64,000 nucleotides of DNA. Source: an uncultured Lentisphaeraceae bacterium (GTDB lineage Bacteria > Verrucomicrobiota > Kiritimatiellia > RFP12 > DVOR01). Positions within the stretch are counted from its first letter, which is position 1; every line of letters starts with the position of its first letter. The stretch is taken from assembly GCA_949282555.1 (NCBI GenBank), contig CASDPK010000005.1, forward strand, positions 1-64,000. Direction: 5' to 3'. Shown here in pieces: positions 1 through 25,006 of the stretch. The notes under the pieces are model-generated. The model was not told where the DNA came from. It did not search any database and was given only the letters and a program-made list of their open reading frames with translations. The position numbers and the translations under genes are program-made.

Positions 1-1
1 C

Positions 2-781
2 CGCGCCCTTACAAACCCCTTCCGCTTCTCCTCCGAATTCCACGACGACACCCTCGCCCTCGTCTACTACAACTACCGCCACTACAACCCCAAAGACGGC
101 CGGTGGCTGGGAAGGGATCCTGCAGGTGAAGAAGAGATAGGATTATGGCTATTTACTAAAAATTCACCCGTGTTCTTGATAGATATTTTAGGGCTTGAAT
201 GTACAAAACAATCCCCCACAAATGTTTCATTGTCTGCATCAGGGGATCTTTATGAGGGTTTCGGAGGAAGTATTGCTGTTGATTTAACTGGAACAGTTTA
301 CGATTGTTGTTGTGATGGACAACTCTACTACAAAGATGCGTTTGAACTTTCACTTACCATTACTGCTGAAATTGGTTTGGGTATTGGCTATCAGCACACG
401 TTGCCTGTTGTTGGTAAGGTTGGCGGAGTAATAAAGGGGCCTCAATATCACGTTTCTGGCGGCGGTGCCTTCTCAAAAGAATGTCGTAAGGATCAATGGT
501 CTGGCGAAATAACACTACTGGATATGCGGGGACGTGGAAATATAAGTGGAACCGCTGGTCTCTTTTGGGAGGCTAGTGCTGGTTATTCATGGGATTATGG
601 TCTCACAATAAAAGCCATGATGCAAGGGAAAGACAAAATTCGAATTGTCGGAACATATGGTTATCAACGTTCAGGAACAGTATCTGGAGGTGCGGGAGCG
701 GTAACAGTCGGAAAACCATTTGCTGAGGCGGATTTTAGAAAAGTTTTTCTTGACATGCGCATTAAACTACCTTGGAGGTGA
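2..781 (+). CDS. RHS/YD-repeat protein, 3' end (5' end lies outside the window), with the RHS core motif followed by a variable C-terminal toxin domain of about 220 aa
   Basis: Frame-2 translation from base 2 reads ...FRFSSEFHDDTLALVYYNYRHYNPKDGRWLGRDPAGEEE..., the conserved RHS repeat-associated core. It continues without a stop into the 170..781 ORF, a Gly-rich, low-GC domain of unknown fold. GC drops sharply after the core, as is typical of polymorphic toxin tips. Confidence 0.8.
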   Translation, partial: RALTNPFRFSSEFHDDTLALVYYNYRHYNPKDGRWLGRDPAGEEEIGLWLFTKNSPVFLIDILGLECTKQSPTNVSLSASGDLYEGFGGSIAVDLTGTVYDCCCDGQLYYKDAFELSLTITAEIGLGIGYQHTLPVVGKVGGVIKGPQYHVSGGGAFSKECRKDQWSGEITLLDMRGRGNISGTAGLFWEASAGYSWDYGLTIKAMMQGKDKIRIVGTYGYQRSGTVSGGAGAVTVGKPFAEADFRKVFLDMRIKLPWR

Positions 782-783
782 CA

Positions 784-1098
784 ATGCAAAAAGATGTTGT
801 TTCGATATTAATCGTATGGTTCGTTTTCGCCCCCATTTTCTTTACTGCACTTCTACTGTTTGGAATTGTCGCATTTCGACATTTACCGACACTTTTTCAT
901 AGCGTGCGAATTAAATCACTAGAACACAAGGGAAAAGCTTTTCCCAAACGTTTTTTTGTCGTCTTTCGTGAACAGCAGAAAGAGTGGAACCACGCTATGC
1001 AAAAAGAGGAAAAACTCCTTCATGTGGCTTACGTCCTCTATGCGTTAGCAATAGGCGTGTTACTCCTTCTTGCTCCCATCGTCTTCTTGCTCTTTTAA
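784..1098 (+). CDS. Putative cognate immunity protein, small two-TM membrane protein
   Basis: The ATG lies 2 nt after the toxin stop and 4 nt after a GGAGGTGA RBS. The 104-aa product has two hydrophobic helices. Position immediately 3' of an rhs toxin tip fits the immunity position. Confidence 0.55.
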   Translation: MQKDVVSILIVWFVFAPIFFTALLLFGIVAFRHLPTLFHSVRIKSLEHKGKAFPKRFFVVFREQQKEWNHAMQKEEKLLHVAYVLYALAIGVLLLLAPIVFLLF

Positions 1099-1128
1099 TT
1101 TTCGGTAAAGTGTTGAATCCCTCTTCAT

Positions 1129-2274
1129 ATGAGTAAGTGTAACTCTACAGCGAAGAATGCCACCGATGATATCACGGGTGAGTGGGCGGTGGAATGCAAC
1201 GCCGAGAATCGCCCCATCCGTTGGACGCAGGGGAACAAGGTCATCACCATGGGCTTTGACCGCATGGGGCGGCGGGTCTTCTACAAGGAGATGGAAGGCA
1301 ACCGCCAAATCACCCACACCCATCCAACAACTCTTTTCCAACAGCCCGTGGAACGTCTACAAGGAGTTCATTTGGGATCCCACGGAGCCCCTCGCCACGC
1401 GCCCCCTCTGCTTCCGACAGTACGGCCAGCGCTCGGCCTTCCTCCTGCACGACGGCAACAAGAATGTGACCGACGTCGTCACCGTCGGCCCCTTCAATGA
1501 GCCCGTCGCCCACTACGACTACGCCCCCTTCGGCGCCGTCACCGCCACAGGTGCCCGCGCCCTTACTACAACTACCGCCACTACAACCCCAAAGACGGAA
1601 GGTGGCTGGGGAGGGATGCCGTGGAAACCGAAAATGTTTATTCGTTTTGTGGGAACGACAGTATTACAATCGTCGATGTATACGGTAGAGTTGGGATTAA
1701 TACTAAACTTTTGAGCTATTATATGTCGCGTCTAGGTAATGGAAGAGTTATAAACGGAATAATTGACATCCTCAGTTCTGACTCCGAGGGGTACTACTCG
1801 TTTACTGATTCTGAGGATGAATTAAAAAGTGATTTTGTAGCGATAGCAAAAAATGCGGTTATTCACGATGCCGTAGATATTACGATTGACGAGTTCAATG
1901 TATGGACTACTCGTTCTTTTAGTACAACTAAAAGTTGGCAAATATCTGAGAAATTTAGGGTTACGCTCAACTCTTCTTCTCGAGTTGAGCTCTCTGGGAC
2001 ATATAAGGTAAAACAATGTGAAGATGGGAGACGTTTCGTTAAAGATGCAACCTGTGATGTTGTGTGGTATGATGAGATGGATGCGAACTCTTTTCGGGAA
2101 CTTTACTACAAAGAAGTCATAGGTGGGGGTGGATGGGAAAAAGTCTCTTCAAGTCGGGCGATAATTTTGATTACAGAGGGGCTTGTAGACTTAGTTGGGG
2201 ATAAAACATTAGGAGCTGACTTTAAGTTTAAAATCAGCAAGTCTGTCCGTTATGGCGGTTGTTGTGAGGAGTAG
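1129..2274 (+). pseudogene. Orphan rhs C-terminal cassette 1: rhs repeat/core fragment interrupted by frameshifts, carrying an alternative C-terminal toxin domain (1621..2274)
   Basis: Three overlapping frames (1129..1500, 1157..1714, 1621..2274) together encode GEWAVECNAENRPIRWTQGNKVITMGFDRMGRRVFYKEMEGNRQITHT ... YDYAPFGAVTATG ... LYYNYRHYNPKDGRWLGRD plus a new toxin tail. Compared with the gene at bases 1-130, about 55 nt are missing between ccgcgccctta and ctacaactaccgcc, which shifts the frame. There is no start codon at the fragment 5' end. Confidence 0.6.
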
Positions 2275-2275
2275 A

Positions 2276-2845
2276 ATGAAAAAGAAATACGTTTTGTTTG
2301 TTGTCGTTTTCCTCTTGGGGATACTTGTCGGAGGACTGTTTACTGCTTTGGACATGAATGTCACCAAGATTGGGCATTTATCGGACACGCATCTCAATGA
2401 TTCGTTAAATCAATGGTTGAAGGGCACCTTTCCACAGTTCAACGATAACGGCTCATGGATAATTGAGTTCGACAAGAAAAGTAATCCCCGCCACTCAACA
2501 CGGTCTTTTATTGTGCCGATACACACAACGATAGGAAGGTGGCGCGTATGGCGCCAAAAGTGGAATGGAAAGATTCGGGTAAAGTACCGTGTGGCGACAA
2601 ATCTATCGGTGGCTCCATCCAGCGAAACCGCGCTTGAATCTATTCTGTATCGCCTTCTTCAAGAGAAGGAAATTATGAGGTGGGAATGGCCTGATATCGT
2701 TTCAGAAACTGAAGGACGCTTTGTCTATTGTTTTAGCTCAAAAGCGCTTTTGAGAATGGAACAAGAGGCCCCTGATGATTTTCCTATTTTACTGGTTTTC
2801 CTGCTGAATAATGTTCCGCTTTGTGAGTCTGTAAATGATCTTTAG
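2276..2845 (+). CDS. Putative immunity protein for orphan toxin 1 (N-terminal TM/signal anchor)
   Basis: An ATG directly follows the toxin-2 stop (gaggagTAGaATGaaaaag). The product MKKKYVLFVVVFLLGILVGGLFTAL... is low-GC and unrelated to the flanking genes. Confidence 0.5.
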   Translation: MKKKYVLFVVVFLLGILVGGLFTALDMNVTKIGHLSDTHLNDSLNQWLKGTFPQFNDNGSWIIEFDKKSNPRHSTRSFIVPIHTTIGRWRVWRQKWNGKIRVKYRVATNLSVAPSSETALESILYRLLQEKEIMRWEWPDIVSETEGRFVYCFSSKALLRMEQEAPDDFPILLVFLLNNVPLCESVNDL

Positions 2846-3137
2846 TCGCAGAGCCTCTGTTCATCCCATTGCGGGCGAGTGGACGGTGGAATACAACGCC
2901 GAGAATCGCCCCATCCGCTGGACGCAGGGGAACAAGGTCATCACCATGGGCTTTGACCGCATGGGCCGGCGGGTCTTCTACAAGGAGATGGAGGGCAACC
3001 GCCAAATCACCCACACCGTCTTCCTCTACGATGGCTACCTCTGCATCCAGCAACTCTTCCCCAACAGCCCGTGGAACGTCTACAAGGAGTTCATTTGGGA
3101 TCCCACGGAGCCCCTCGCCAAAGGAACACACGAATGA
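2835..3137 (+). pseudogene. Orphan rhs fragment 2, truncated: repeat region only, no core and no toxin
   Basis: GEWTVEYNAENRPIRWTQGNKVITMGFDRMGRRVFYKEMEGNRQITHTVFLYDGYLCIQQLFPNSPWNVYKEFIWDPTEPLAKGTHE*. The roughly 245 nt at 2880-3125 is a near-identical direct repeat of 1180-1400. The frame ends before the YYNYRHYNP core. Confidence 0.6.
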
Positions 3138-3652
3138 AGAAACGTATCGTACATCATTACGTGCTCTTCGTTGGCATATGCCTCTTGGGAGGGATGCTTT
3201 CTTTGTTGCTTTTAACGAAAGGAAGCAAAGCTTTGCCATTGGGCGAGGTGTTGAGCGAGGATTTTGATAACGTAACAAAAGAAACCTCCGCCCTGCTCGG
3301 CGACATTCCGGAGTTAAATGCAAGGACAACGCTGGTTACTTGTCTCAGCACTTATGATCTCATCTTCTATGTGGAGGTTCAGGTTGTTCAACTTTGGATA
3401 ACCCCAACCGTATGGAAGCGATGGCGACAATTATCTTCGTCAGGGGGCACTATGCGAGAATTGACGCTCGAGCGAATGATTCCCATTTGGCGTGAGGTGG
3501 CCCAAACGTTTTTGCCGACCGATTCATCTTACTTATATTGGAATTATCCGTTAAAGAACGGTTGGCGAGTGTCGATGATGTCGGCGTCTCATCAGGCGAA
3601 CCATCGTCTAATTCCTGTGTTGGTCGTATTTAGGCGTCCAGGTGTGCGTTAA
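3134..3652 (+). CDS. Small membrane protein, putative orphan immunity gene fused by an ATGA overlap to rhs fragment 2
   Basis: The ATG overlaps the fragment-2 stop. The 172-aa product has an N-terminal TM (HYVLFVGICLLGGMLSLLLL) and is low-GC. Confidence 0.4.
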   Translation: MKKRIVHHYVLFVGICLLGGMLSLLLLTKGSKALPLGEVLSEDFDNVTKETSALLGDIPELNARTTLVTCLSTYDLIFYVEVQVVQLWITPTVWKRWRQLSSSGGTMRELTLERMIPIWREVAQTFLPTDSSYLYWNYPLKNGWRVSMMSASHQANHRLIPVLVVFRRPGVR

Positions 3653-3753
3653 TCTTTGCTTATAGATGGCAGCGATTGACGTTTTGCGAAGCGATGTTTT
3701 GTGTTACCCACCCAAGAAGGTATAATGTGAATGTGCATAGAAAGGAGTTTCCC

Positions 3754-4299
3754 ATGAGATGCGGTCTGATTCTATTGTTGTCTATGTTTTACACGCTTGC
3801 CACCCCCCTTTTTGGGCAAGCGCAGGCAAATGCCGAGCTTCCAGCGCGCGCCTCTACGGAAATGGCAGAGGAGATCTATGAAAAGGCCACGGAGATCGGC
3901 AAATTGTGGCAACTGATTCCCCCGACAGTAACGCAAAGAGAGGTGAAAAGCAGTCATTGGGGGGATTTTGTCGCAAACATTGTATGGCTCAACGTGCTCT
4001 TTGCCCGTGTTGGAAATCTCCCAGTGAACGAACCCGCGACGTTTGAAACGTTTTGCAAAGAAGAAGAACACAACATAAAGCGGAGAGGGGAAATTCTGTC
4101 GTATTTCACAAAAGAAGAAACACGAATGCTATTTAATCTAACGACGTTTGCCACAAACAAGAAAGTCGCGCAGGGTGTCATCGATTATCTTTCCAAGCAA
4201 AACAAGCTCGATGAGTTCAATGCGCGATTATTGAAGATACGTAATGCGTACACCAAAGAGACAGAGATCGTCCACAAAATCCTCCGTGGACCTATTTAA
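3754..4299 (+). CDS. Secreted hypothetical protein with a signal peptide
   Basis: AAGGAG RBS followed by ATG MRCGLILLLSMFYTLATPLFGQAQA. There is a TATAAT box about 30 nt upstream. The region is low-GC. Confidence 0.45.
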   Translation: MRCGLILLLSMFYTLATPLFGQAQANAELPARASTEMAEEIYEKATEIGKLWQLIPPTVTQREVKSSHWGDFVANIVWLNVLFARVGNLPVNEPATFETFCKEEEHNIKRRGEILSYFTKEETRMLFNLTTFATNKKVAQGVIDYLSKQNKLDEFNARLLKIRNAYTKETEIVHKILRGPI

Positions 4300-4506
4300 T
4301 ACGTTATGATCAACGTCTACCCATGGCGAGAATTTGAGACCTGCGCCGATCTCTAACGCCACTGGGGACGCCGTGTCAAGAGACGCACGGTGAGACATAC
4401 GAAAACTTGCCAAGAATGCACACAGGTTTTCAATTCTCTCTTTTGTGTTACACTTGCATGATGGTTCGACGGTCAATCGATCCTGTAAACGAAAGGACAA
4501 CAACAC

Positions 4507-6924
4507 GTGAAGGCTGGATATTGGTTTGGATGCACGGTTGTGGCATTGGCATTGGCGGGGTGCGAGGCGCCGTTGCCGAAAGTGACCTTGCAGGATGGCA
4601 CAGAGGTCCGCGTGACGGAACTCAAGGCCGGGACGGCCGAAGAACTCCCGGGGAATCCTTCTGCCGCTCGGCTTTCAGAGCGAGAAACTCGGAAAATCAC
4701 CCCTTACACACTGAAACAAGAAGGCCCAGAGGGGCTACGACTTACCCTGAAGAGTTATGACCACAAACTGGAGGGAGGCCACTATCTCCGCGTGTTCATG
4801 ACCATCCAGAACGTCTCCGACCAACCGCTTGCGTTGGATCGCGTGTATGCCGCCGATGCCTTTTCTCCGAAAGACCGAAAGGGGACCTTCTCCCTAAACG
4901 GCAACACGGACGGCGCCGTCTTGATCTTTACGCCCGAACAAGGCGATGGCCTCGAATGGTTTGCCATTGAACACCCCATGGCGCGTTACGAGGTGAGCGA
5001 CGGCCTACGTACCTTGCCGCGAAAGACCACCTACACCTTCGCCGATCTGACGAACGCAAGACAAGGCGGGCAATTCCACGTTCCGGCCAAGGTGACTTTC
5101 GAGACGGTTCAAGTGACCCTATCCTACACCGGCGGGAATCTCAAGGCCATCTACTCCAAGGTGGAAGCCATCGACCCCACGACTGGCGAAGTCTTGGCAA
5201 CAGACGCACACTTGGGCGAAAGTGGTGATACCTCCAAAGACAATGTCTATACACTGACCAACCTGCCCCCCGGCCATGAGGTGGCGTTGCGAATCTCTGC
5301 CCATACCGACGGGACCGGCGCATCGAACGGGCGTATCACCCTTAAAGGCGCGGAACACATCGACTGTGTGAGGTTGGCGCAACCCACCTCACTCACGGCC
5401 TATGTCCCCGTCAATGACACGCTTGCCCCCAGAGAAACGCTCACGTTCTCGGCCGTCTACGGAAAGTGCGACGAAGCGGGACAATTGCGCCGGACGTTCA
5501 ACGCCTATCTCAACGCGGAACGCGCACATCCCCACCGCGTCTTGCCGCATTACAACTCATGGTACGATCTGTGCATCAACCGCAATGACAAAGACGTCTC
5601 CGGGCGTTTCACCGAAGCGGAAGCCCTCTCTTCCATGCGTGCCTTCCGGAAAGAGCTCCACGAGAAACGGGGAGTCTTCATCAGCTCGTATCTTTGGGAT
5701 GACGGTTGGGATGAATGGGACTCTCTTTGGGACTTCAACACCAACTTTCCCCAGGGATTCCGCAATCTCGCCGATGAGGCGCACAAAGTGCCCGGAGCGT
5801 CCATCGGTTGCTGGATGAGCCCTTTCGGCGGATACGGCGGCTCTTTCTCCAGGCGTTTGGCCTACGCAAAGCGGAAAGGCTACGTGGACGCCAACGCCCC
5901 CGGCTTGCAACTCTCCAAGCCCATTTATTATGCCGCCTTCCGGGACCGTGTGCTCACGATGATCCGAGAATACGACATGAACCTGTTCAAGTTTGACCGG
6001 ATGGGGTCAGGCTCCGATGCCACCGGCGCGGCCGAACGTTACGCCGCGGATCTGCGGGCCGTCGGCAAGCTCTGCGGGGAAATGCGCGCGACCAAGCAGG
6101 ACGTCTTTATCAACTGTACCGTCGGCACCTGGGCCTCGCCCTACTGGCTCATGTGGTGCGACAGCATCTGGCGCGGCGGCAACGACTGCGCGGGTATCGG
6201 TTCGGTGGGGACGGCCCGTCAGCGGTGGCTGACCTATCGCGACGACGTGATCCATGACCGCTTCGCGTCCAAAGCGCCCCTCTTCCCGCTCAACTCCATG
6301 ATGATGCATGGCATCATTGTCTGCAAGAGCTCCCCCCACAACACCATGCGGGATTACAAGGGAACCGGCAACCACGTCTACGCCGGCGAGGGCTACGCCA
6401 CCCCCACCGCATGCGCCGACTTCGCCTCCGAAGTGTGGATGAGCATGGCGCTCGGGACTGGGCTTCAAGAGTACTACATCTCCCCCACCCTCATGAGCGA
6501 GACGTGGTGGGACATTCTGGCCGACGGCATCAAGTGGCTCAAGGCAAACGAAGACACGCTCGTGGATTCCCACTGGATTGGCGGGAATCCCGCCGACGAA
6601 GCCAACGGCAATGCCCTGAAAGACATTTATGGTTACGCCTCGCTCGGAAAGGACAAGGGAATCATTCTCTTGCGCAACCCCTCCGACAAGACCCAAACGA
6701 TTAAGGTGGATTTCGATGGTTGGCTGGAGATGCCCAAGGCCCGCCAAGGTTCGCCGTGCCGTCCAACGATGGTCTTCAACTCCACCGCCGCCTACGAGAA
6801 TGCCGGCAAGCCCGGCGCCTTTGTCCCCGTTTGGCCCAAAACCACCGCCGAACAAGTGACATGGCAACTCCCGCCCTTCGCCGTTGTGCTCTTTGAGCTG
6901 GAGTTGGGCACCGCCAAGAAATAG
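4507..6924 (+). CDS. Lipoprotein, putative glycoside hydrolase (TIM-barrel, alpha-galactosidase-like)
   Basis: GTG start. Lipobox LALAGC. The 805-aa product has motifs LWDDGWDEWD, CWMSPFGGYG and FKFDRMG that recall GH27/36-type hydrolases. The family assignment is uncertain. Confidence 0.4.
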   Translation: MKAGYWFGCTVVALALAGCEAPLPKVTLQDGTEVRVTELKAGTAEELPGNPSAARLSERETRKITPYTLKQEGPEGLRLTLKSYDHKLEGGHYLRVFMTIQNVSDQPLALDRVYAADAFSPKDRKGTFSLNGNTDGAVLIFTPEQGDGLEWFAIEHPMARYEVSDGLRTLPRKTTYTFADLTNARQGGQFHVPAKVTFETVQVTLSYTGGNLKAIYSKVEAIDPTTGEVLATDAHLGESGDTSKDNVYTLTNLPPGHEVALRISAHTDGTGASNGRITLKGAEHIDCVRLAQPTSLTAYVPVNDTLAPRETLTFSAVYGKCDEAGQLRRTFNAYLNAERAHPHRVLPHYNSWYDLCINRNDKDVSGRFTEAEALSSMRAFRKELHEKRGVFISSYLWDDGWDEWDSLWDFNTNFPQGFRNLADEAHKVPGASIGCWMSPFGGYGGSFSRRLAYAKRKGYVDANAPGLQLSKPIYYAAFRDRVLTMIREYDMNLFKFDRMGSGSDATGAAERYAADLRAVGKLCGEMRATKQDVFINCTVGTWASPYWLMWCDSIWRGGNDCAGIGSVGTARQRWLTYRDDVIHDRFASKAPLFPLNSMMMHGIIVCKSSPHNTMRDYKGTGNHVYAGEGYATPTACADFASEVWMSMALGTGLQEYYISPTLMSETWWDILADGIKWLKANEDTLVDSHWIGGNPADEANGNALKDIYGYASLGKDKGIILLRNPSDKTQTIKVDFDGWLEMPKARQGSPCRPTMVFNSTAAYENAGKPGAFVPVWPKTTAEQVTWQLPPFAVVLFELELGTAKK

Positions 6925-6948
6925 CACGGTGATAAATCCATCCCCTCA

Positions 6949-6984
6949 CAGCAGGAGCCCTCACTGGGCTCCTGCTGTTTTATT
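6949..6984 (+). terminator. Rho-independent terminator after the hydrolase gene
   Basis: cagcaggagccc-tcact-gggctcctgctg followed by TTTTATT. Confidence 0.6.
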
Positions 6985-7061
6985 CGATCCAACAAAAAAG
7001 GCGTGCCGAAGCACGCCGTAAGAGAAAATCCACCGGGGCGACAAACGCCCAAGCGTTCCAA

Positions 7062-7517
7062 TCATGCCACGCCCAAAGACCCCACGGCAATGAGCGTGAA
7101 GACCATCACGAAGATTGCGGTAGTTTCGATAATGCCGAGCGCGGCGAGGTTGTTGGTGAAGCCCTGCCCGGTCTCGCCCTGGGCATCAGCGGAGCATCCG
7201 CCCGCGCGCCCTTGGAAAATGGCGGACATCCCAATGCCAAGCCCGGCGAAGATGCCGAGGATCAGCATTCCAAAGCCACCACCCGCAATGACCTTTGTGC
7301 CGATCATGGTGAACATCAGAATCATCCCGTAGAGCGTCTGCGTGATGGGCGCGCCGACATAGGCCAGCAGCAGGAAGGGGGCCGGACGGTTTTGGGCGTA
7401 GCACTTCTTCCAAGCGCCGATGGCGCCGGCGGCGGCAAAGCCCGTGCCAATGGCAGAGCCCAACCCAGAGAGTGCGAGACAGGCGACGGCGCCTGCGACG
7501 GTGAGTGCGGTATCCAT
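7062..7517 (-). CDS. atpK: V/A-type ATP synthase subunit K (proteolipid, duplicated hairpin)
   Basis: The 151-aa Gly/Ala-rich product has four TM helices. It carries TQ (PITQTLYG), Q (AIFQG) and ET (GIIETTA) motifs at the positions of the Na+-binding signature. Confidence 0.8.
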   Translation of the reverse strand: MDTALTVAGAVACLALSGLGSAIGTGFAAAGAIGAWKKCYAQNRPAPFLLLAYVGAPITQTLYGMILMFTMIGTKVIAGGGFGMLILGIFAGLGIGMSAIFQGRAGGCSADAQGETGQGFTNNLAALGIIETTAIFVMVFTLIAVGSLGVA

Positions 7518-7530
7518 AGTGTGTGTTCCT

Positions 7531-9348
7531 TTACTGTTGAGGTTGTTTGAAAGGGAGATAGGGAAGGCCCGACCACGTGATTCCCTTGGCGTTCGAGAAC
7601 TCCAAGGTGTTCAGGCGGACAGCGTGCACGAGCACGGAGAGCGCCCCCATCGCAAGATTAAGCCCATGGCCCACCAACAAGATGGCACAGACGGCCAAGA
7701 CGCGGGGCACGATGGGAAGATCAAGCCCCAAGGCCATGGCGTTGAAGTTCTCCGCCACTTTGACGGAGGCAAGGCCAACGGCAAAGAGACGAACATAGCT
7801 GATGATGTCACCCATCGCGCTGATGACGTTGAGCGGGAGCATTCCGATGCTGATGCCCTCGTGGCGGATATCCGCCAACAACGGCACAAGGATCAGCGCC
7901 ACATTGCCTCCGAGGAACCACCACGTCCATGCGGGCGAGGTGAACCAACTCACCACAATGCCGCACACGATCAGGAACATGCTCCACGTCACGCCCAGCC
8001 ATCCCAGCTCACCCACAGCTTTGAGGTTCGGCGCCAGCAGAACGGCATTCCAAAGCCGCGCCACGGAAAGATGAAGCGCGCCGATGAGGAAGCACAGGAA
8101 CATGAGGTTGCTGTCATTCCCCAACCATGCCACCGTCGGGAGGTTCGCCAAGGCCGCGGGCAACGCATCCTTGGCAATGCCAAAGTAGGTTCCCGAAAGG
8201 ATGCCCCAAACGATCGTGGACAGGCAGAACACCGTGAGGATCAGCAACACCGGGCGCGCCACCGCCGACGTTCTCAACTTCCATCCCGCCGCCAGCACGC
8301 CGGCCAACATCACGACGCCATAACCGGCGTCGCCCACGAGCATGGCAAAGAAGAGGGAGAAAAAGAGATAGAACGGCACGGAACAATCCCCCTCCGTGTA
8401 GCCCGGCAGAATGCCAAGCCCCTTGAAGAGCATCCCAATGGAGCGGAATCCACGCGGAGGCTCCAAGAGTACGGGAACGTTCGGATCGTCCGCCTCGGGC
8501 ACTTCCAGCACAATGCCCCACCCCTCGCTCTGGGCCTTGGCCGTCACGGCCTCGGCTGCACGCGCCGGGACATAACCTTGCAAGTAAGCCACTTCGCCTT
8601 CATTCCGAAGGTTCGCGGCGACCTCAACCGCCGTCCGCTCGGCTTGTCGCGTTGCCACCTCTCGGCGGAAAAGCGGACGGAGTTTTGCGGCCTCTGCCGC
8701 CAACCGCTCCACACATCGATCCGCCAATGCCTGCGCCTCCTGCGCCCTTGACTGCAACGTCTGCGTGGAATGCTTCGGCGGAAGGATCGCCTCAAAGCCC
8801 TCCGGCAAAGGTTCTTTGGAGACCCATGCACCATAGACGAATCCACCTTCCACGCCAAACGCGAAGGCTCCCTGCAACTCGGTTTTCTCCGGTGCCCTGA
8901 ACAGCATCACGGGAAGCCCCTCTCGCGTCAAGGCCGCAAGCGTCTCAGGATCAACGGAACCGAACGGCGCCAGCCGACGGAGTTCAAGCTGACACGCGAA
9001 AGCCTCCTCGCGCAGGCGAGTGACAATCTCAGCCGCACGGTTCACGGCCTCAGAAGTCCGGAAATCGGAAGTCTCGCGCGCGGCTTCGGCCAACGCCTCA
9101 AACGCCATCCCGGCGACCGGCGAGGCGGCATCCGGATGGAACGCGAAGGCCCCGTTCCGCTCCGCGACATCAAGCACACGCAGCGCCTGCTCAGTGGCAG
9201 CAACAGATGCGGAAGCCTGGCGGATTTCCTCGCCATCGCGCACCTCAAGACTCACGTGCACACATCCCAATTCGCGCAGGGCAACCAGCGCGGCGGCACA
9301 CGCCTTGGAGGAACACAGCAGCGTGAGTCGTTGCATCGGAACAATCAT
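7531..9348 (-). CDS. atpI: V/A-type ATP synthase subunit I
   Basis: About 605 aa with a hydrophilic N-terminal half and a polytopic C-terminal half. Start MIVPMQRL preceded by GGAGG, overlapping the atpD stop by ATGA. Confidence 0.8.
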   Translation of the reverse strand: MIVPMQRLTLLCSSKACAAALVALRELGCVHVSLEVRDGEEIRQASASVAATEQALRVLDVAERNGAFAFHPDAASPVAGMAFEALAEAARETSDFRTSEAVNRAAEIVTRLREEAFACQLELRRLAPFGSVDPETLAALTREGLPVMLFRAPEKTELQGAFAFGVEGGFVYGAWVSKEPLPEGFEAILPPKHSTQTLQSRAQEAQALADRCVERLAAEAAKLRPLFRREVATRQAERTAVEVAANLRNEGEVAYLQGYVPARAAEAVTAKAQSEGWGIVLEVPEADDPNVPVLLEPPRGFRSIGMLFKGLGILPGYTEGDCSVPFYLFFSLFFAMLVGDAGYGVVMLAGVLAAGWKLRTSAVARPVLLILTVFCLSTIVWGILSGTYFGIAKDALPAALANLPTVAWLGNDSNLMFLCFLIGALHLSVARLWNAVLLAPNLKAVGELGWLGVTWSMFLIVCGIVVSWFTSPAWTWWFLGGNVALILVPLLADIRHEGISIGMLPLNVISAMGDIISYVRLFAVGLASVKVAENFNAMALGLDLPIVPRVLAVCAILLVGHGLNLAMGALSVLVHAVRLNTLEFSNAKGITWSGLPYLPFKQPQQ

Positions 9349-9956
9349 TCCGTAGCCTCCTTTCGTTGGGGAGCACGGCCCTTGGCGATTTTGCCGCGCA
9401 CGACGGCGGCCGTCTGTTCGTCGCCGATGAAGATGCGGATCACGCGGATATTCTCCTTGCACTCCGGAATCTTCACCTTCTCAAACAGATTCACGCGCTG
9501 ACCCGTGGTGTGAAGCTCCTCTTGAACCAACGCGCGTTGGCGGCGAAGGACATCGCCCTCGGCCTTGAGTGCCATCAATTCCGTGAGCATCGCCTGCGCA
9601 TCGTCCGTCCAAGCCGGGGTGCGATACGGATCCAGCGGCGAGGGCTCGGCCTCAATTCCCTCATAGAGAGGGATGGCGACACCAGCGATGTTGCCTTGAC
9701 CGACACGCACGCCCTTGAATGTCACCAACGTTTCGGGCGAAACCTCGGCGTCGGCGTACAACGCGATCCAAGACTCCAGCCGGCGGCGAGCCTCATCCTC
9801 CCGGCTCTGCACCTCTGCCAACTTGGCGGAAATGCCGGCAATCTCGGCCTGAAGTTGCTGCTTCTTGAGCTGAAGCATCGGCAAGAAGCGCTGGAACCGC
9901 CTCAGCGCGTCCGTCTGGGCCTTCAGCTCCGTCTTCGTGTGCTTGATCCGTGCCAT
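9345..9956 (-). CDS. atpD: V/A-type ATP synthase subunit D
   Basis: 203-aa coiled-coil protein MARIKHTKTELKAQTDALRRFQRFLPMLQLKKQQL... lying between B and I. Confidence 0.8.
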   Translation of the reverse strand: MARIKHTKTELKAQTDALRRFQRFLPMLQLKKQQLQAEIAGISAKLAEVQSREDEARRRLESWIALYADAEVSPETLVTFKGVRVGQGNIAGVAIPLYEGIEAEPSPLDPYRTPAWTDDAQAMLTELMALKAEGDVLRRQRALVQEELHTTGQRVNLFEKVKIPECKENIRVIRIFIGDEQTAAVVRGKIAKGRAPQRKEATE

Positions 9957-9988
9957 GGGAACACCTCGAAATCAGAACCAAGCGCCCA

Positions 9989-11287
9989 TCACGCCTTCTT
10001 CGGCCAAAACTTCTCCGCCATCTTGGTGGGGATACCGGTCTCCATCGGCTCAAAGCAGTCGGCAAGGATGGCCCAGCCAAGATCAAGGGCCTGTTCCAAG
10101 GGGATATTGACGGAAAGATCCATCATCTTCTCCTCGAAAAGGGCACCATAACGCAACAACTTGCGGTCCCAGTCGCTCATGCGGAAGCCCATGGACTGCT
10201 TTTCGGCCGCGTCCTTGTACTGCGCGTAAAGCTTGATCATCGCGTCCATGATCGTGCGGTGATCCTCGCGGGTATCCTTGTTCACCTGTTGCTTGAGACG
10301 CGACAAAGAACCGAACGGCTCAATGCGCCCGTTGCGGAGGTAGAACTGTCCCTCGGTGATATAACCGGTGTTGTCGGGCACGGGATGGGTGACGTCATCA
10401 CCGGGCATCGTCGTGACGGCCAAGATGGTGATCGACCCCGCGCCTTCGAAGTCCACGGCCTTCTCGTAACGGGCGGCCAGCTGAGAGTAAAGATCGCCGG
10501 GATAGCCGCGGTTGGAAGGAATCTGCTCCATGGTGATGGCGATTTCCTTCATCGCGTCGGCAAAGGACGTCATGTCCGTGAGAAGCACGAGCACCCGCTT
10601 GCCCTTAAGCGCGAATTGCTCCGCCACCGCAAGCGAAACGTCGGGCACGAGCATGCACTCCACCACGGGATCGGCGGCCGTGTGCACAAACATCACCGTG
10701 CGCGAAAGCGCACCGGAGGCATCGAGCGTGTCGCGGAACGCAAGGTAATCGTCATGCTTGAGCCCCATGCCGCCAAGGATGATGATGTCCACCTCCGCTT
10801 GGAGGGCAATGCGGGCAAGCAGGTCATTGTAAGGCTCGCCGGCACGGGCGAAAATCGGGAGCTTCTGGCTCTCCACAAGCGTGTTGAAGACATCGATCAT
10901 CGGAATGCCCGTACGCACCATGTGACGAGGGATAATGCGTTTGGCGGGATTCACCGAAGGTGTGCCAATATCGGTGAGCGACATGGAGAGCTCGGGGCCA
11001 TTGTCACGGGGCTTGGCCGAACCTGTGAAGACGCGCCCCAGCAATTCGTCACCGAAGGGCACCTGCATCGGGTGCCCAAGGAAGCGCACCTGTGCATCCG
11101 TCGCCACGCCACGGGCTCCGGCAAAGACCTGAAGCGTCACCTCATCGCCGGCGAGTTTGATGACCTGAGCCAACGAGGTGCCGACACGCGAATCAATTTC
11201 CGCCAACTCCTTGTTCCGGACGCCTTCGGCGCGCAGGGTCACCACGGAACCGGAGATATTGTCAATGCGATGATAAAGCTTATGCAT
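9989..11287 (-). CDS. atpB: V/A-type ATP synthase subunit B (regulatory)
   Basis: Start [20 protein letters not shown] preceded by GGAGG. The product shows an alpha/beta ATPase fold without a P-loop lysine context and is very similar in layout to NtpB. Confidence 0.9.
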
Positions 11288-13022
11288 GGGGAGCCTCCGA
11301 AACGAGTTTAAGGATGGCCTCGCGGCGGGCGTCGTAGCCTTCACCGCCCAAGGGGGTGTTGTTCCAGTCGATGAACGCCTGCTGGATCGCCAGAAAAGCT
11401 CTGCGGGCCGCGTCCTTCTCTGGATAAGCGTAGGATTCCGAAACGACCTTTTCGAGCACATCGAAGGCGGCGCGCTGACGCTCCGGCGAACTGCTGGCAT
11501 CGACTTCGTTGAAGGCATTCTGCTGGAGGTAAACCGCGTCGATCAGTTCCTTTTTGAGGAAGACCACAAAATCCTCCATCGCGGTGCCTTCCTCGCCCAC
11601 CACCTTCATCATCTGCTCCACGTCTGCCCCCTTGCGCAGAAGGGATCGAAGCGCCTCGACACGCGGTTGTTCGATGACGGAACGGTATTTGCTCCAAGAA
11701 TCGAGCGGGTCAATGGCAGGGAAACGGCGCGCATCCGAACGCGCACGGGAAAGACCGTGGAACGCTCCAACCACCTTGAGCGTGGCTTGCGTTACCGGCT
11801 CGTCAAAGTTGCCGCCCGCAGGGGAAACGGTGCCGCCGATGGTGACGGAACCGATTGAACCGTCTTTCAGGCGAACGCGCCCGGCGCGCTCGTAAAATCC
11901 GGCAATGACCGATTCGAGGTACGCAGGGAACGCCTCATCGCCGGGGATCTCTTCCAAACGCCCGGACATCTCACGCAACGCCTGCGCCCAGCGGGAGGTA
12001 GAGTCCGCCAACAAGAGCACATTGAGCCCCATCTGCCGATAATAGCCTGCGAGCGTCACGGCGGTGTAAACCGAAGCCTCACGCGCCGCCACCGGCATGG
12101 AGGAGGTGTTGCAGATGATGACGGTGCGATCCATCAGAGTGCGCCCCGTCTTGGGATCTTTCAGCTCGGGGAACTCTCGCAACGTCTCCACCACCTCACC
12201 CGCGCGCTCACCGCACGCGGCCACAATCACGATGTCCACGTCGGCATACTGCGATGTCTGGTGCTGAATCACCGTCTTGCCCGCGCCGAACGGCCCCGGG
12301 ATGCAATAGGTTCCACCCACCGCCACGGGGAAGAAGGTATCCACGGAACGAATGCCCGTGGGAAGGGTTTCCGTTGGGCGAAGGCGCTCAGCATAACACG
12401 TGATGGGAAGTTTCACGGGCCACCGCTGCATCAATTTCACGGAATGCTCCGCACCCTTCGCGTCGGTAACCACCGCGACCTCGTCCTCCACGGTATATTG
12501 TCCCGCAGGACTCACGCGCTTGACGGTGTAGACCCCGCGCCAGGCGAACGGAATCATGATGCGATGCGTGTAAACGCCCTCCGGCACCGTGCCCACCGTC
12601 TCACCCGCCGTCAGCCGATCGCCCGGCTTGGCCACAGGCGTGAAGTCCCACTTCGTCGAGCGATCCAGCGAGGGGAGATAGGTGCCACGTTGGAGGAAGA
12701 AACCACATTGCTCGGCCAGTTCCGGCAACGGGTTCAGCAATCCATCATACACACGCCCGAGAAGTCCCGGCCCCAACTCGGCGGAAAGAAGATCCCCCGT
12801 GAAGTCCAACGTGTCACCCACCATGAGGTCGCGCGTATCCTCAAACACTTGAAGGTCGGCCACGCCGTCGCGCACACGCACGATCTCGCTCATCAGGCGC
12901 AACGTCCGATCCTTCTCGGGAATGCACGCATAGCCCACTTCGTTCTGCGCCACGGCCCCGGTAAAAGCCACCGTGATCATGTTGCCGTTGACGCCCGTCA
13001 CTTTCCCTGTCGTCTTTGCCAT
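11280..13022 (-). CDS. atpA: V/A-type ATP synthase subunit A (catalytic)
   Basis: The 580-aa product has the Walker A sequence GPFGAGKT and the non-homologous insert region typical of A subunits. Confidence 0.9.
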
Positions 13023-13035
13023 TTGTCACGCTTCC

Positions 13036-13569
13036 TTAAAGAGTCTCTTTCGGCAGTGCGGCCTCCAGCCGCTCCGAACCGCGCACAGCATCCAACGCCG
13101 CCCTCCGGAGGGCCAAGCGAAGTTTCACGGCATACGCAAAAATTTGCCCTTTGCTCGCCGGGTCAAACCCGCCAAGACTTTCCGCCGCCGCCCAACGTAC
13201 CCGCATCAACGCCTCTTCGCGCGCCAACGGATCGGGTGCGGATTCAAACGCGGCATCGACCATCCGCGTCAGCCACACGGGACAAGCCGCCGTTTCCGGC
13301 GGAGTGAATTCCCCCGAGGCTGCCGCCCCACGCCGCGTCAAACGCCGCCGGCCAATGGCACCGTCAATCGCGGCCTCCAAATTGCGCCAAGCACACACTT
13401 GGGGATGATCGGAGGTCTCCGCACTCCCTCTCACCAACAGTGCCGCCGCACGCGCATCCCGAGCGGAAAGCGCACTGGCACAGGCCGCAACGAACGCCTC
13501 CGCCGTCACGGTTGGCGCACGGTCGGGGAAAAGCATCGGCAACGAGGCCAACAAATATCCAAGACTCAT
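13036..13569 (-). CDS. Hypothetical protein embedded in the V-ATPase operon (DUF2764-like position between E and A)
   Basis: 177-aa Ala/Arg-rich protein. Its position matches the uncharacterised gene found between E and A in Bacteroidetes- and Chlamydia-type V-ATPase operons. Confidence 0.4.
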   Translation of the reverse strand: MSLGYLLASLPMLFPDRAPTVTAEAFVAACASALSARDARAAALLVRGSAETSDHPQVCAWRNLEAAIDGAIGRRRLTRRGAAASGEFTPPETAACPVWLTRMVDAAFESAPDPLAREEALMRVRWAAAESLGGFDPASKGQIFAYAVKLRLALRRAALDAVRGSERLEAALPKETL

Positions 13570-13632
13570 GAAACCTCCTTACGGTCGGCGGAGAGAGCGA
13601 TCATGCGCAGGCGACCTTCCCTCCGACAGCGC

Positions 13633-14205
13633 TCATTTCAGGAGTTCGGCCAATTGCGGACGCAACAAGCCCGCCAACGCCGCCGTGACGGCCTCACCAG
13701 AAAAATCATGTTCCACGCGTCCCCCCGCAAGGCGAATCCGGAATCCCGTGCCCATCTGAGGATCGGTCACCACCGTGGCATCCCCCTTGATCGCAAGTGT
13801 GGCCTTCAGCGCCACCGCGAGTTCCGGCCCCACCGTTACCTCGCCAACGCCGTCCTTGAAATACGTTTCCACCGCCTCTGCGATCAGACGCTCCACCAAT
13901 GGCCCCGGCTTCAACGCCTCGTCCACCGCACCACCCAGTGTCCGCTCCAACAACGCCGTGACATCTTGCCCCAACTTTAGCAAGACATCCCGCGCAGCCT
14001 GGCGAATCGTTGCCTCGGCCCCTTGGGCCGCTCGCTCCGCCTCCGTCTTCGCCTTCGCCACCGTGTCAGCGGCCTCCGCCTTCGCCTTCGCCACAATGTC
14101 GGCAGCCTCCGCCTTCGCCTTCGCCACAATGTCGGTAGCCTCCGCCTTCGCGGCATCGACACCCTCACTGCGGATTTTGTTCAGAAGCGCATCAAGGTTT
14201 TCCAT
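13633..14205 (-). CDS. atpE: V/A-type ATP synthase subunit E
   Basis: 190 aa, a long N-terminal Ala/Lys/Glu helix plus a C-terminal globular part. Contains an in-frame triple repeat DIVAKAKAEAA. Confidence 0.75.
   Translation of the reverse strand: MENLDALLNKIRSEGVDAAKAEATDIVAKAKAEAADIVAKAKAEAADTVAKAKTEAERAAQGAEATIRQAARDVLLKLGQDVTALLERTLGGAVDEALKPGPLVERLIAEAVETYFKDGVGEVTVGPELAVALKATLAIKGDATVVTDPQMGTGFRIRLAGGRVEHDFSGEAVTAALAGLLRPQLAELLK
14038..14150. repeat. 33-bp tandem repeat, about 3.5 copies, inside atpE
   Basis: gcctccgccttcgccttcgccacaatgtcgg(c/t)a repeated. It encodes DIVAKAKAEAA x3 on the minus strand. Confidence 0.8.
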
Positions 14206-14399
14206 CGCTCTTGCATCCTTTCTCAGACTTGCGAATCACGATACCATGCCAGACGAAAACGCGTCAAGGCAAAGGCTCTTCCGAAGAAGAATAATCCATA
14301 CTATACCAACTCAAAGGTTAGTAAGCAAGCAGAATCCCCTGCCTGCGACCCGATTGCCCAAAAGGGAACTCGATCACATCCACAAACGTCAACGAGGAA

Positions 14400-15938
14400 T
14401 CACCGAGACAATATCCGTTGCCCTATTTGAATCAAATCCTCCACCGTTGGGGAAATGGGCTTGGGAGGCTCTGGTGGATCGCCAACAGCGTCCCGCACGG
14501 CCGGCCATCCGCCAAGGCAGACGGGAAGACCACTCGCAGCGGACAGTTTCATCTCGCGCACCAAACGGCAATAATCATCGTAAGAAGCGCAATAACGCTC
14601 AAACCAATGATACAACGTGTACTTTGGATAACGAAGGAGCAATGCGTCCACGTCATTCAGGAATTGCGGATCATGCGTGTGTTGGTATCGGGCCAACGCT
14701 TCTGTCGCCAAGGCAATAATGGTCCGCTCAGCCCGGGCTCTCGGGAGCTCCTTCCCCCGAAATGACACAAGCTCCTTCAACACCTCCTCCGCTGTCTGCT
14801 CCGATCTCGGCAACGAAAACGTGGACCGTCTGAAAGCCAAGCCGCACCACCGCTCGTCCGACGGGCGCGGCTCAGGAACCCGCTCTGCCGCCAACAGCCA
14901 ACGGCAAGGCATCGGCTCCCGAGGCATGGCCTCACAAAGAAGAACCACGTGCTCGAGATCAAGTCCCTTAGGAAGTGGCTCCCCCTTCCATGGCACCACC
15001 CAGTCACTCTCCGGAAAAGCCGCATGCAAGGCTGCCTGTACCTCGGAAACTCGTTCATTCGGGAATGCTCCGAAAAAGGCGACATCCTTTGGGTTATTCA
15101 AGCGCGACCGAAGCACACCGTAATAGGCCTTCGCCTGTTCTTCAAAGGGTTTCTCACACACCATTCCCTCGGGAAGGCCGATGAAGACCGGCAGGACAAG
15201 GCAAAGTTCGTCTCTCAGCCGACTCCCCATCCAATATCCCGTGGGAAGTTCATGTGCATTCCAAAACACCCTCATTTCCAACGGTGTCACGAGGCGCAAC
15301 GAGGCCGGAGGGGACACGCCGAGCGCTTCGGCGACCTCGCGCCAAAGAATCTCTTCACGCATGGGAATGAACAGATGTGTTCGCGAATCGGCCACTATCG
15401 AGAAAACCTCATCCCGAAAATCCCAACTGCGACCCACCAGATTCACCACCAACGTTTCAGGCTTCCATGTAGCAAATCGCCACGTACCTTGCTTCCGTGC
15501 CTTCTTTTTGGGAATTACGGCCTTCCCCTTGACAACCTTCTCCTTGGGATGAGGCACGTTGACATAGTCATACGCCGGCACCCCCTCAATCCGCAACATC
15601 TCCGCCAAAGCGGCACCGCGCCACACCCGAACATCCAGCTCCGCCTCCAAGTTCCTCTGTCCTACGAGCTGCTCAAAAGGCCGAGCGTAACGTTCGTCAC
15701 AATAGTAGCGCAAATAATTTTTCGGCACCCCTTCCAATGCGGGTGGAAGCGTCCGTGCCGTCAGTTGCACATAGTGCCCCATGAACAAATCGCGCGGGTC
15801 ATAGACTTCGACATGTAACGTTACACGCTCTCCCCGCGTGAGGATGAGATGATGTTTCACGAGCATCCAGGTCGGCACCGCCAGTTGTGCCACAAGGCCC
15901 ACGAGGAGGAGGGCACGCTTCCACGAAATCCTTCTCAT
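14400..15938 (-). CDS. GDYXXLXY-domain protein with a large C-terminal extension
   Basis: The N-terminal roughly 190 aa have a signal anchor and a DPRDLFMGHYVQL motif of the GDYXXLXY type, followed by about 320 aa of unknown function. The start overlaps the upstream gene stop by ATGA. Confidence 0.55.
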   Translation of the reverse strand: MRRISWKRALLLVGLVAQLAVPTWMLVKHHLILTRGERVTLHVEVYDPRDLFMGHYVQLTARTLPPALEGVPKNYLRYYCDERYARPFEQLVGQRNLEAELDVRVWRGAALAEMLRIEGVPAYDYVNVPHPKEKVVKGKAVIPKKKARKQGTWRFATWKPETLVVNLVGRSWDFRDEVFSIVADSRTHLFIPMREEILWREVAEALGVSPPASLRLVTPLEMRVFWNAHELPTGYWMGSRLRDELCLVLPVFIGLPEGMVCEKPFEEQAKAYYGVLRSRLNNPKDVAFFGAFPNERVSEVQAALHAAFPESDWVVPWKGEPLPKGLDLEHVVLLCEAMPREPMPCRWLLAAERVPEPRPSDERWCGLAFRRSTFSLPRSEQTAEEVLKELVSFRGKELPRARAERTIIALATEALARYQHTHDPQFLNDVDALLLRYPKYTLYHWFERYCASYDDYCRLVREMKLSAASGLPVCLGGWPAVRDAVGDPPEPPKPISPTVEDLIQIGQRILSR

Positions 15939-17128
15939 TGCCGGCCTCCTTTCCAGCCTCGGGACAACAAGAGATTGACGACAAACAACGCGATGCCTCC
16001 GGCGATAAGCAACACCCCCTGCACCATGAGTTCCACCCTCATTGCGATCACACTGAACCACGCCGACAGCAACGTGAAGATGAGCCCTTCATTGGCAACC
16101 GCACGTTTCCCAACCCGCACACCGTACGCAATGGCCACAATACCGACGAGCAACGCCCCAATCGTCAACAGAAGCGATGATCTCCCAATCATGCGACCCA
16201 CGTAAAGCGCGGCACTCATCACCGGAAGCAGTAAGAGAAAAATTCCCTCATTGCGCAGAAACCACCGCCCCAACCCCGCCACAAGGAACACACTCATCAC
16301 CACCCACCATAGGGGAGAGGCGAGACGGATCAACGGCGCCTCGACAATCCCCATAAAAATCCCAAAAACAGGAATCAGTAACCCAAGGATGGACAACGGC
16401 CGTCCCCCCGGGCCATACTGCCGCTCAACCCAAGCCCCGATTCCCAACAGCGACCACCCGCACACCAAAAAGATCGGATGAGCCGCCGGCACAATCTCCA
16501 CCCGACGCCAAACAAACACCAGCAGAAAAACCAAGGAGATCATAGCCATCAAAGCCGCAAGCCATCGTTGCCCCCTCGCATGAAGTCCCCCATCCCTCCA
16601 AAATCTCGATATGCACGGCAGAAGAAGTGCAATCCCCGTCAGCAAAATCAGGACCGAGATTTCGACATGTTTCCCCTTAAACGTATCCATGGCCACGAAA
16701 GCGGAAGCAATGACAAATCCCCACGCCGTCATCCATGCCGCCGTGGCCCGTGTGGCCAAAACCACCGGCAACAACAACACCGTCACTGCCAAGCAGAAAT
16801 CTAACGCCGAAGAGCTCAGTTGCAACACTCGGCCCAACAGCGCAATGGAACACACCACGCCGCCCGTCCACAGCACCCCCAGCACCTCATGTGCCGCTAG
16901 TGAAGTCACCCCACGCCACAGCATCCACGCATACACCCCCCACGCCGTCACCAGTGGCGCCATGGCCACCGTCACCTGCACCGCAAAAGGGATCGTATAC
17001 CAATTCGCCGCAAGCAATGCGATCAACCCTCCAATGGCCAGCGCCACACCCGCAGAGCCAAACCACAGAAAACCCTTCATGGATTTCGCTTGCACCGCCT
17101 CAACCTGCCTACCTTCTTCCATCGCCAC
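15935..17128 (-). CDS. Polytopic membrane protein, DUF4401-like
   Basis: 397 aa with about 11 TM helices. It sits between a DUF2157-like gene and a GDYXXLXY gene, matching the conserved three-gene arrangement. Confidence 0.5.
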   Translation of the reverse strand: MAMEEGRQVEAVQAKSMKGFLWFGSAGVALAIGGLIALLAANWYTIPFAVQVTVAMAPLVTAWGVYAWMLWRGVTSLAAHEVLGVLWTGGVVCSIALLGRVLQLSSSALDFCLAVTVLLLPVVLATRATAAWMTAWGFVIASAFVAMDTFKGKHVEISVLILLTGIALLLPCISRFWRDGGLHARGQRWLAALMAMISLVFLLVFVWRRVEIVPAAHPIFLVCGWSLLGIGAWVERQYGPGGRPLSILGLLIPVFGIFMGIVEAPLIRLASPLWWVVMSVFLVAGLGRWFLRNEGIFLLLLPVMSAALYVGRMIGRSSLLLTIGALLVGIVAIAYGVRVGKRAVANEGLIFTLLSAWFSVIAMRVELMVQGVLLIAGGIALFVVNLLLSRGWKGGRQ

Positions 17129-17196
17129 ATCTCCCTATCGACTTTCAAAACAAAACCATCCGACCATCGCCCAGCAAGGACGCTCTGCCTCCTAGA

Positions 17197-22922: not shown

Positions 22923-23120
22923 GTGCGGCGAAACTTGTTGAGCCTTGGCAATCCATCTTGGGAGATCTTTTCCTCTCCCTCCCGTTTTCTATTCTCCTCT
23001 TCCGGCGCATCATTGCCACACGTTCGAAATACCGCTTGGTAAAGATGGAGAAAACACATGACAATTAATGGAAAGCAGAAATCACATTGCAGCCCTGTTA
23101 CAGTCTACGTGTGCTCAACG

Positions 23121-23711: not shown

Positions 23712-24086
23712 TTTTCGCGATCCTTTCGGTGCAGAATGTCAATCGGGGGAATAGATGATGGACTGTTTGCAGGCGTTGTTCCTATTATTGCTCGGATAAA
23801 TTGTCAAAATGTGCCGATTTTTGAAGAATGGGTTCCCAAAACGTCACGCCAAGTGGATCGTCTTGGCATCGTTCAAGGATGGTCCGACGTGCTTTGGTCC
23901 TGATTCCTGAATCGGCCCATCGTGCGAGCATGTGTTATCCGGAGTTGAAATAAGCTCATTCAACTCGTCCTTGGAGAAATCCTCATATGGATCGGACAAT
24001 CGGCTGGGGCGCGTATACAATTTTTCAACGGCCACTTTCAATCGTTCCCATTCCATACTTCACTCCTCTTTCGGGTGTCCAACACG

Positions 24087-24996: not shown

Positions 24997-25006
24997 CGTG
25001 AGAGTT

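Follow-up and report, generated by a model that had tools for sequence, protein, structure and literature searches.

The window analysed here comprises the first 64,000 nucleotides (nt) of contig CASDPK010000005.1 (assembly GCA_949282555.1), from an uncultured Lentisphaeraceae bacterium. The organism is a gut member of the Kiritimatiellota, and the window very probably opens on the 3′ end of a polymorphic-toxin locus of the rhs type, in which a leading module, made up of the Rhs core, a toxin tip (tip 1) and an immunity gene (imm1), is followed by the remains of earlier or alternative modules. In these remains, an orphan cassette (cassette 1) has been knocked out by deletions, and the immunity genes imm3 and imm4 are left over. 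The orphans are at three successive stages of decay: cassette 1 is broken, cassette 2 is gutted with imm3 kept, and imm4 has no rhs sequence left. A first-pass annotation of this DNA had described two rhs 3′ fragments downstream of the leading gene, both of which we recovered; the locus is nonetheless longer than it proposed, reaching ~4299 rather than 3652, and includes a fourth immunity gene, imm4.

The leading rhs gene and its orphan cassettes

The 3′ end of the leading rhs gene occupies positions 2 to 781 of the plus strand, and its frame-2 translation starts RALTNPFRFSSEFHDDTLALVYYNYRHYNPKDGRWLGRDPAGEEE / RALTNPFRFSSEFHDDTLALVYYNYRHYNPKDGRWLGRDPAGEEEIGLWLFTKNSPVFLIDILGLECTKQ. Over window 2–778 the gene scored 50.2 bits with TIGR03696 (Rhs_assc_core), for which the curated cut-off is 32.5; the match spans the first 65 residues and model positions 13–76 of 76, so that the window opens inside the core domain. 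The core ends at ~nt 120–196 (YYNYRHYNPKDGRWLGRDP ... IDILGL), and within ~100 nt past the core-end motif the GC content drops from 51% to ~41%. Tip 1 follows (~197–778, stop codon 779–781), with a GC content at third codon positions (GC3) of 0.29; the tips and immunity genes together range from 0.29 to 0.52, as compared with 0.6–0.78 in housekeeping open reading frames (ORFs) further along the window. The putative immunity gene for tip 1, imm1 (784–1098, plus strand), starts 2 nt past the toxin stop and encodes 104 amino acids (aa) with, by hydropathy, two transmembrane (TM) helices (hydrophobic segments at ~residues 1–38 and 76–104) and a basic central loop. Tip 1 and imm1 were intact and 99–100% conserved over six contigs from six different samples (L001–L006). 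A tblastn search with the core protein returned no further core-end copy in the 64 kb.

Direct repeats of the leading gene and of each other delimit the two orphan cassettes (cassette 1, 1129–2274; cassette 2, 2872–3120): 1175–1320 corresponds to 2872–3017 and 1321–1397 to 3044–3120 (both 96% identical), while 65–118 recurs as 1564–1617 (94%). Cassette 1, on the plus strand, is a pseudogene in this strain, as delineated by these repeats and by alignments, and carries a different tip, tip 2, at ~1693–2271. On its core remnant TIGR03696 reached 31.5 bits, just under the cut-off. Alignment to cassette 2, L002, L013 and L007 showed that 26 nt (GTCTTCCTCTACGATGGCTACCTCTG) are missing at 1320|1321, and alignment to the leading gene, L002 and L007 that a further 55 nt are missing at 1566|1567, equivalent to nt 10–64 of the leading gene, with TAC microhomology at the junction. 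Cassette 1 consequently reads in frame 1 from 1129 to 1320, in frame 2 from 1322 to 1561, the 26-nt deletion being responsible for the frameshift, and again in frame 1 from 1564 to 2274, since the two deletions sum to 81 nt and thereby put tip 2 back in frame with the ATG at 1129. Between the deletions, 243 nt are read out of frame, frame 1 meeting a stop at 1498–1500. Tip 2 itself lies in an ORF that runs from a GTG at 1621 to 2274, and is 43% identical to the tip of protein P0002.

Immediately downstream, the putative immunity gene for tip 2, imm2 (2276–2845, plus strand), encodes 189 aa with one N-terminal TM segment or signal anchor by hydropathy, and adjoins tip 2 in every one of L087–L090 at 99–100% identity. 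The cassette 2 remnant (2872–3137, plus strand) consists of a 249-nt shell (2872–3120; translation GEWTVEYNAENRPIRW...FIWDPTEPLA), which shares 96% identity with cassette 1 and 99% with L013, and, joined directly to it, the final few codons and the stop of a toxin gene that has otherwise been deleted. In the junction alignment this end pairs with the 3′ terminus of a toxin gene in L017, final codons and stop included, and it overlaps the ATG of the ORF at 3134–3652; the remnant yielded no TIGR03696 match and contains no toxin. Cassettes 1 and 2 both retain the last few YD repeats (YNAENRPIRW, FDRMGRR). The ORF at 3134–3652 (plus strand) is a putative orphan immunity gene, imm3, of 172 aa with one N-terminal TM segment, whose homologues in L017 (5626–6141, 79% aa identity) and L010 (3089–3526, 64%) both lie directly 3′ of an intact tip2-family toxin. 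We therefore conclude that cassette 2 once held a tip2-family toxin, deleted here, and that imm3 was presumably its immunity partner. No similarity was detectable between imm2 and imm3. The last gene, imm4 (3754–4299, plus strand; 181 aa, signal-peptide-like N terminus), is a putative lone orphan immunity gene with no rhs remnant; it is also present in L087, and it shares 64% aa identity with an ORF of L018 (11375–11917) located directly 3′ of a 1737-aa full-length Rhs, the tip of which has a HELRH motif.

The structure that the first-pass annotation had drawn from the letters, namely a core passing into a low-GC tip and a 2-TM immunity gene, then a cassette with its own core remnant, tip and immunity gene, and a second cassette lacking core and toxin and running into a membrane gene, is thus borne out in each of its parts, none of which is a chance feature. 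Its roughly 55-nt deletion in cassette 1 proved to be exactly 55 nt and the frameshifts to be real; the second, 26-nt deletion had not been specified.

The same locus in other samples

The strongest support for toxin-tip displacement, and for cassette 1 being a genuine module that decayed here, comes from versions of the locus that differ from the window. Contig L087 (6.6 kb, from a different sample) is 95.6% identical to window 658–4417, and in it cassette 1 is an unbroken ORF of 406 aa (positions 3182–4402), after which come imm2, the remnant of cassette 2, imm3 and imm4. The leading core of L087 bears another tip, with three other small ORFs, and just the last 124 nt of tip 1 stand before imm1. 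In turn, L001 is identical to the window over 1–1320; beyond that point its cassette 1 lacks 159 nt in frame and has another tip, a member of the tip 1 family, followed by ORFs that differ from those in the window. Different strains hence bear different tips in the leading position (L087) and in cassette 1 (L001). These findings support tip displacement at this locus, as the first-pass annotation had proposed, and answer its call to look for tip switching; we infer the direction and mechanism of the changes. Its view that the orphans are in different states of decay also holds, with cassette 1 intact in L087 and twice deleted here, and imm3 homologues sitting behind intact toxins in L017 and L010.

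Other sequences from the locus were short. We found imm1 on 22 contigs with consecutive ENA assembly accessions (six shown: ERZ16268052 to ERZ16268236), of which 21 were under 2 kb; all 22 break in the core, and the best upstream extension among them was 131 nt. In L090, at least 561 aa of open shell are connected to tip 2, but across an N gap, and we did not rely on this contig. No genome locus was found to be syntenic with the window beyond 4300.

At the same position, marked by an identical 5′ junction (MSKCNST...), the cassette 1 shell is intact in L087 and L002, lacks 159 nt in frame in L001, and lacks 26 and 55 nt in the window, and internal deletions in the orphan shell region seem recurrent. 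Long antisense ORFs cross the GC-rich rhs core fragments, both in the window (1060–1341 and 2784–3329, minus strand) and in L087 (3113–3709, minus strand). In several public contigs such an antisense ORF is annotated instead of the true plus-strand cassette; in L087, a 198-aa minus-strand call masks the intact 406-aa orphan. Antisense ORFs are thus an annotation trap for rhs orphans.

Toxin tips and their putative immunity partners

Neither tip 1, tip 2 nor any of the four immunity ORFs had a match in Pfam and NCBIfam, apart from sub-threshold ones on imm1. An exhaustive HMMER search of 1.84 billion representatives recovered 22 relatives of tip 1, and those inspected were either C-terminal to Rhs-type cores or short fragments starting at the tip. 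Near-invariant residues of the family include C60, C61 and several glycines, and a CxCC-type motif is common to most members. Glycine makes up 16% of tip 1, in which hydrophobic residues alternate strongly (z = 5.8 relative to shuffles), and the tip was modelled as an all-beta, amphipathic, membrane-barrel-like beta-sheet. The C-terminal residue was F, W or Y in 12 of 19 homologues, and the aromatic C terminus of many relatives resembles the beta-signal of the beta-barrel assembly machinery (BAM). The tip-1-family toxins of L091 and L092 are followed by ORFs of ~100 aa in which two hydrophobic stretches can be seen by eye, though imm1 has no sequence similarity to these ORFs. Among PDB sequences tip 1 had a single weak match (E = 0.03), to chains whose deposited name is 'S-layer homology domain-containing protein', and a Foldseek search of its model against the PDB returned nothing with E <0.01.

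Judging by the model, tip 1 is probably a membrane-inserting, pore-forming-type toxin that would be neutralised within the membrane. A more specific proposal, which we put forward tentatively, is that tip 1 and its ~20 relatives form an undescribed class of Rhs-delivered toxins: Gly-rich, ~195 aa long, with amphipathic beta-strands like those of an outer-membrane barrel or beta-pore, killing by insertion into the target membrane or by jamming its assembly, blocked in the membrane by a 100-aa two-helix immunity protein, and carried by a Sec-exported Rhs vehicle, independent of a type VI secretion system (T6SS), in a diderm bacterium of the Planctomycetes-Verrucomicrobia-Chlamydiae (PVC) group.

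For tip 2 there were four detectable relatives only, and a profile search against the PDB found no match. The searches with tip 1 and tip 2 had no members in common, by which criterion, rather than by direct comparison, the two are separate families. The N-terminal anchors of imm2 and imm3 hint weakly that their toxins might act outside the cytoplasm.

Relatives and export route

When species-representative genomes were scanned with the reconstructed core, we obtained 261 core relatives, the closest of which (83–90% aa identity) came from gut metagenome-assembled genomes labelled Kiritimatiellaeota, and some Lentisphaeraceae; Akkermansia cores were 45–50% identical. The core takes two forms in these relatives, full-length genes of 1735–2300 aa and shorter copies of ~190–1150 aa, the ORFs of which begin at arbitrary points in the shell. 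In the closest relatives, full-length proteins of 1735–2112 aa with RHS/YD repeats and TIGR03696 are succeeded by shorter orphan copies. L008, for example, encodes a 2077-aa RHS-repeat protein, two small ORFs and then an 876-aa copy. We rejected the idea that the short copies of 150–450 aa are a distinct 'mini-Rhs' family, given their arbitrary shell starts and the full-length genes that precede them in relatives.

The first-pass annotation had expected a T6SS, VgrG or PAAR context, which we did not find in the relatives examined. PF05593 matched 3–6 stretches each in L008, L009, L014, L018 and L045, and the four of these that were also scanned with NCBIfam (L009, L014, L018 and L045) had TIGR01643 as well. 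In these four full-length relatives the RHS/YD repeats and TIGR03696 were the only domains, with no PAAR, VgrG or other trafficking domain in Pfam and NCBIfam; the L008 protein had no PAAR or VgrG match in Pfam, with which alone it was scanned, nor was one seen in the window itself, where Pfam was run on 13 of 50 candidate ORFs, although whole genomes were not searched. Many full-length relatives have signal- or anchor-like hydrophobic N termini, such as MKKRAVFMLAAFSVLGGLWA. Together, these N termini and the absence of PAAR and VgrG domains point to export in this lineage that is probably Sec-dependent and T6SS-independent. Rhs proteins of Akkermansia are reported to be enriched in extracellular vesicles (PMC11923206).

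In L018, the region 2000–18700 contains two tandem full-length rhs genes (6149–11362 and 13356–18695) with near-identical N-terminal two-thirds and different tips. Each is preceded by the same ~1.5 kb block, the opposite strand of which is transposase-like (helix-turn-helix, '...ILTDNASEF...'). This arrangement suggests insertion sequence-mediated rhs duplication in a relative.

Neighbouring features of the window

The first high-GC gene beyond the locus (4507–6924) encodes an 805-aa protein whose N terminus is lipoprotein- or signal-like; at E up to 0.1 it matched nothing in Pfam or NCBIfam. Of the ORFs scanned further along, those at 7531–9459 (minus strand), 9950–11308 and 25584–27989 (minus strand) had no Pfam match. 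A second islet of low GC3 (0.39–0.48) lies on the minus strand at 22155–25726, and its ORF at 22155–22922 starts with a remnant of rhs shell, to which a hydrophobic tail is fused. With full-length Rhs proteins of L018, L009 and L090 as queries, tblastn matched window 23003–22767 at 46–54% identity (E 1e-11 to 1e-7). Upstream of this remnant on the minus strand are three small ORFs with lipoprotein-like N termini and no Pfam match. The islet probably represents an older rhs remnant in more advanced decay, together with orphan immunity genes.

Alternative explanations

Several observations weigh against our account of the locus. The assignment of toxins and immunity genes is putative, being based on position and conserved pairing across loci, and the AlphaFold2 model of tip 2 was unusable (predicted local distance difference test score 48). 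Neither of the window deletions is present in the other fetched contigs, L002, L003, L005, L088 and L089 each being without one or both, and the deleted allele is found only in the window. Moreover, the sequence begins within the core, apparently at a contig end, and L001 and L003 share its first base. We infer that the leading gene is a full-length 'main' rhs, but it could itself be an orphan, its YD shell and N terminus lying beyond the sequence start. In the fuller form of this alternative, the leading gene is one more orphan in a longer array and the true main rhs lies upstream on another contig, which we regard as possible though doubtful. Consistent with it, the extra 37–131 nt upstream in L004–L006 are 98–100% identical to the cassette 1 core, arrays in relatives can carry two or three copies after the main gene (L008), and hundreds of 150–450-aa core-plus-tip fragments exist in the clade. 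On the other hand, the first array copy is full-length in the inspected relatives (L008, L009 and L018), and the intactness and near-complete conservation of tip 1 and imm1 in L001–L006 fit an actively used module.

The cassette 1 deletions, and possibly the module order, could also be artefacts of metagenome assembly in a repeat-rich, strain-mixed region, as might be suspected from the way contigs of these samples all fragment at the locus, from the L090 scaffold joined over its N gap, and from the presence of at least three cassette 1 versions among the samples, with the deleted one confined to the window. We consider this quite improbable. The deletion junctions share 0–3 nt of microhomology, and because a de Bruijn graph needs junction-containing reads to make such a jump, an artefact of the k-mer graph is unlikely; deletions of 26 and 55 nt are also untypical of consensus errors. 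The order tip 2, imm2, cassette 2, imm3, imm4 recurs in the independently assembled L087, and tip 2, imm2 and the start of cassette 2 in L088, while L089 spans tip 2 and imm2 only. Likewise, the orphan fragments are not parts of one intact gene split by an artefact, a possibility that the first-pass annotation had raised. Somewhat less improbable, but still unlikely, is that orphan cassettes are independently translated ~400-aa Rhs C-terminal toxin (Rhs-CT) proteins that act with their immunity genes in the manner of toxin-antitoxin pairs, as described for a Salmonella orphan (PMC7043789). In keeping with it, the ATG-led cassette 1 ORF (MSKCNST...) is unbroken in L087, L001 and P0007, at 406, 393 and 444 aa, respectively; yet fragments in the clade start at arbitrary points of the shell, and a sigma-70-type scan of 1–4600 gave 3 promoter-like sites against a shuffled mean of 5.4, although that consensus may not suit this phylum. 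In the window, cassette 1 cannot act in this way, its ORF being disrupted. Terminator-like sites numbered 7 as compared with 4.6 ± 2.0 in shuffled controls, which we report as not exceeding the controls.

Comparison with known systems

Reading the locus as a leading module with displaced orphans places it beside polymorphic toxin systems, including enterobacterial rhs, in which a main gene is accompanied by orphan C-terminal toxin/immunity modules and new tips are acquired via recombination (PMC3150448, PMC3482391). With the enterobacterial main rhs and orphan rhs-CT/rhsI loci (Poole et al. 2011, PMC3150448; Koskiniemi et al. 2013, 2014, cited in PMC8920140) it shares a sharp core-to-tip boundary, a lower-GC tip, an immediately adjacent small immunity gene, downstream 3′ core fragments with alternative tip/immunity pairs, and a leading tip that varies between strains. 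Unlike those loci, it belongs to the Kiritimatiellota, within the PVC group; the full-length relatives examined lack PAAR and VgrG and have signal-peptide-like N termini, the tips are unrelated to characterised Rhs-CTs, and the orphans stand at three stages of decay.

Also comparable are the Rhs/WapA-like repeat proteins of Akkermansia muciniphila, which have homologous cores and occur in many copies and fragments per genome in another gut PVC host (PMC8920140, PMC11923206). No T6SS has been described in A. muciniphila, and its Rhs proteins are proposed to serve in intraspecies exclusion (PMC8920140, PMC11923206). Those papers do not contain the anatomy of an orphan array and concern a different organism, whereas the locus described here is known from sequence alone. 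Similarly, WapA of Bacillus subtilis, which is Sec-exported, has in common with the full-length relatives an N-terminal signal, a YD shell, a C-terminal polymorphic toxin followed by an immunity gene, and the absence of T6SS adaptor domains. However, WapA crosses a Gram-positive wall, and diderm Kiritimatiellota would need an extra outer-membrane step.

The orphan immunity arrays of the Vibrio cholerae T6SS, in which immunity genes outlast their toxins, resemble imm3 and imm4, but lie behind auxiliary clusters of the T6SS and not behind an rhs gene (PMC5361080). Lastly, the Pseudomonas aeruginosa Rhs pore-forming toxin Tse5 resembles tip 1 in being Rhs-delivered, in its proposed membrane action and in having a membrane-associated immunity protein (PMC9637101). 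In neither sequence nor fold did we see a match between tip 1 and Tse5, and the model of tip 1 is an all-beta amphipathic sheet. The C-terminal toxin of Tse5 is helical.

Proposed mechanism and implications

The mechanism that we envisage draws on established Rhs biology. The YD-repeat shell would encapsulate the C-terminal toxin, which, once freed past the DxLGL-type core end, would be passed on to neighbouring cells, with the immunity gene shielding kin. New tips would arrive by recombination in the conserved core, pushing older tip/immunity pairs downstream, where the displaced toxins would decay and the immunity genes would be kept because they may still protect against neighbours with those toxins.

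A full-text search of the literature turned up no publication that deals with rhs loci of Kiritimatiellota. The architecture as such is already well described; the locus departs from earlier examples in its phylum, in its two tip families, both uncharacterised, and in that the full-length relatives examined have no T6SS adaptor domains. With this locus, the classic arrangement of a main rhs gene plus orphans now includes uncultured Kiritimatiellota of the gut, and the different versions of the locus in several samples, with a module intact, knocked out by two deletions or replaced, provide an unusually direct snapshot in which immunity genes, as putatively assigned, outlive their toxins. Two uncharacterised toxin families are flagged, one of them with a membrane-pore prediction. 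In addition, the findings are a further hint, after those from Akkermansia, that PVC bacteria of the gut may use Rhs toxins without a T6SS.

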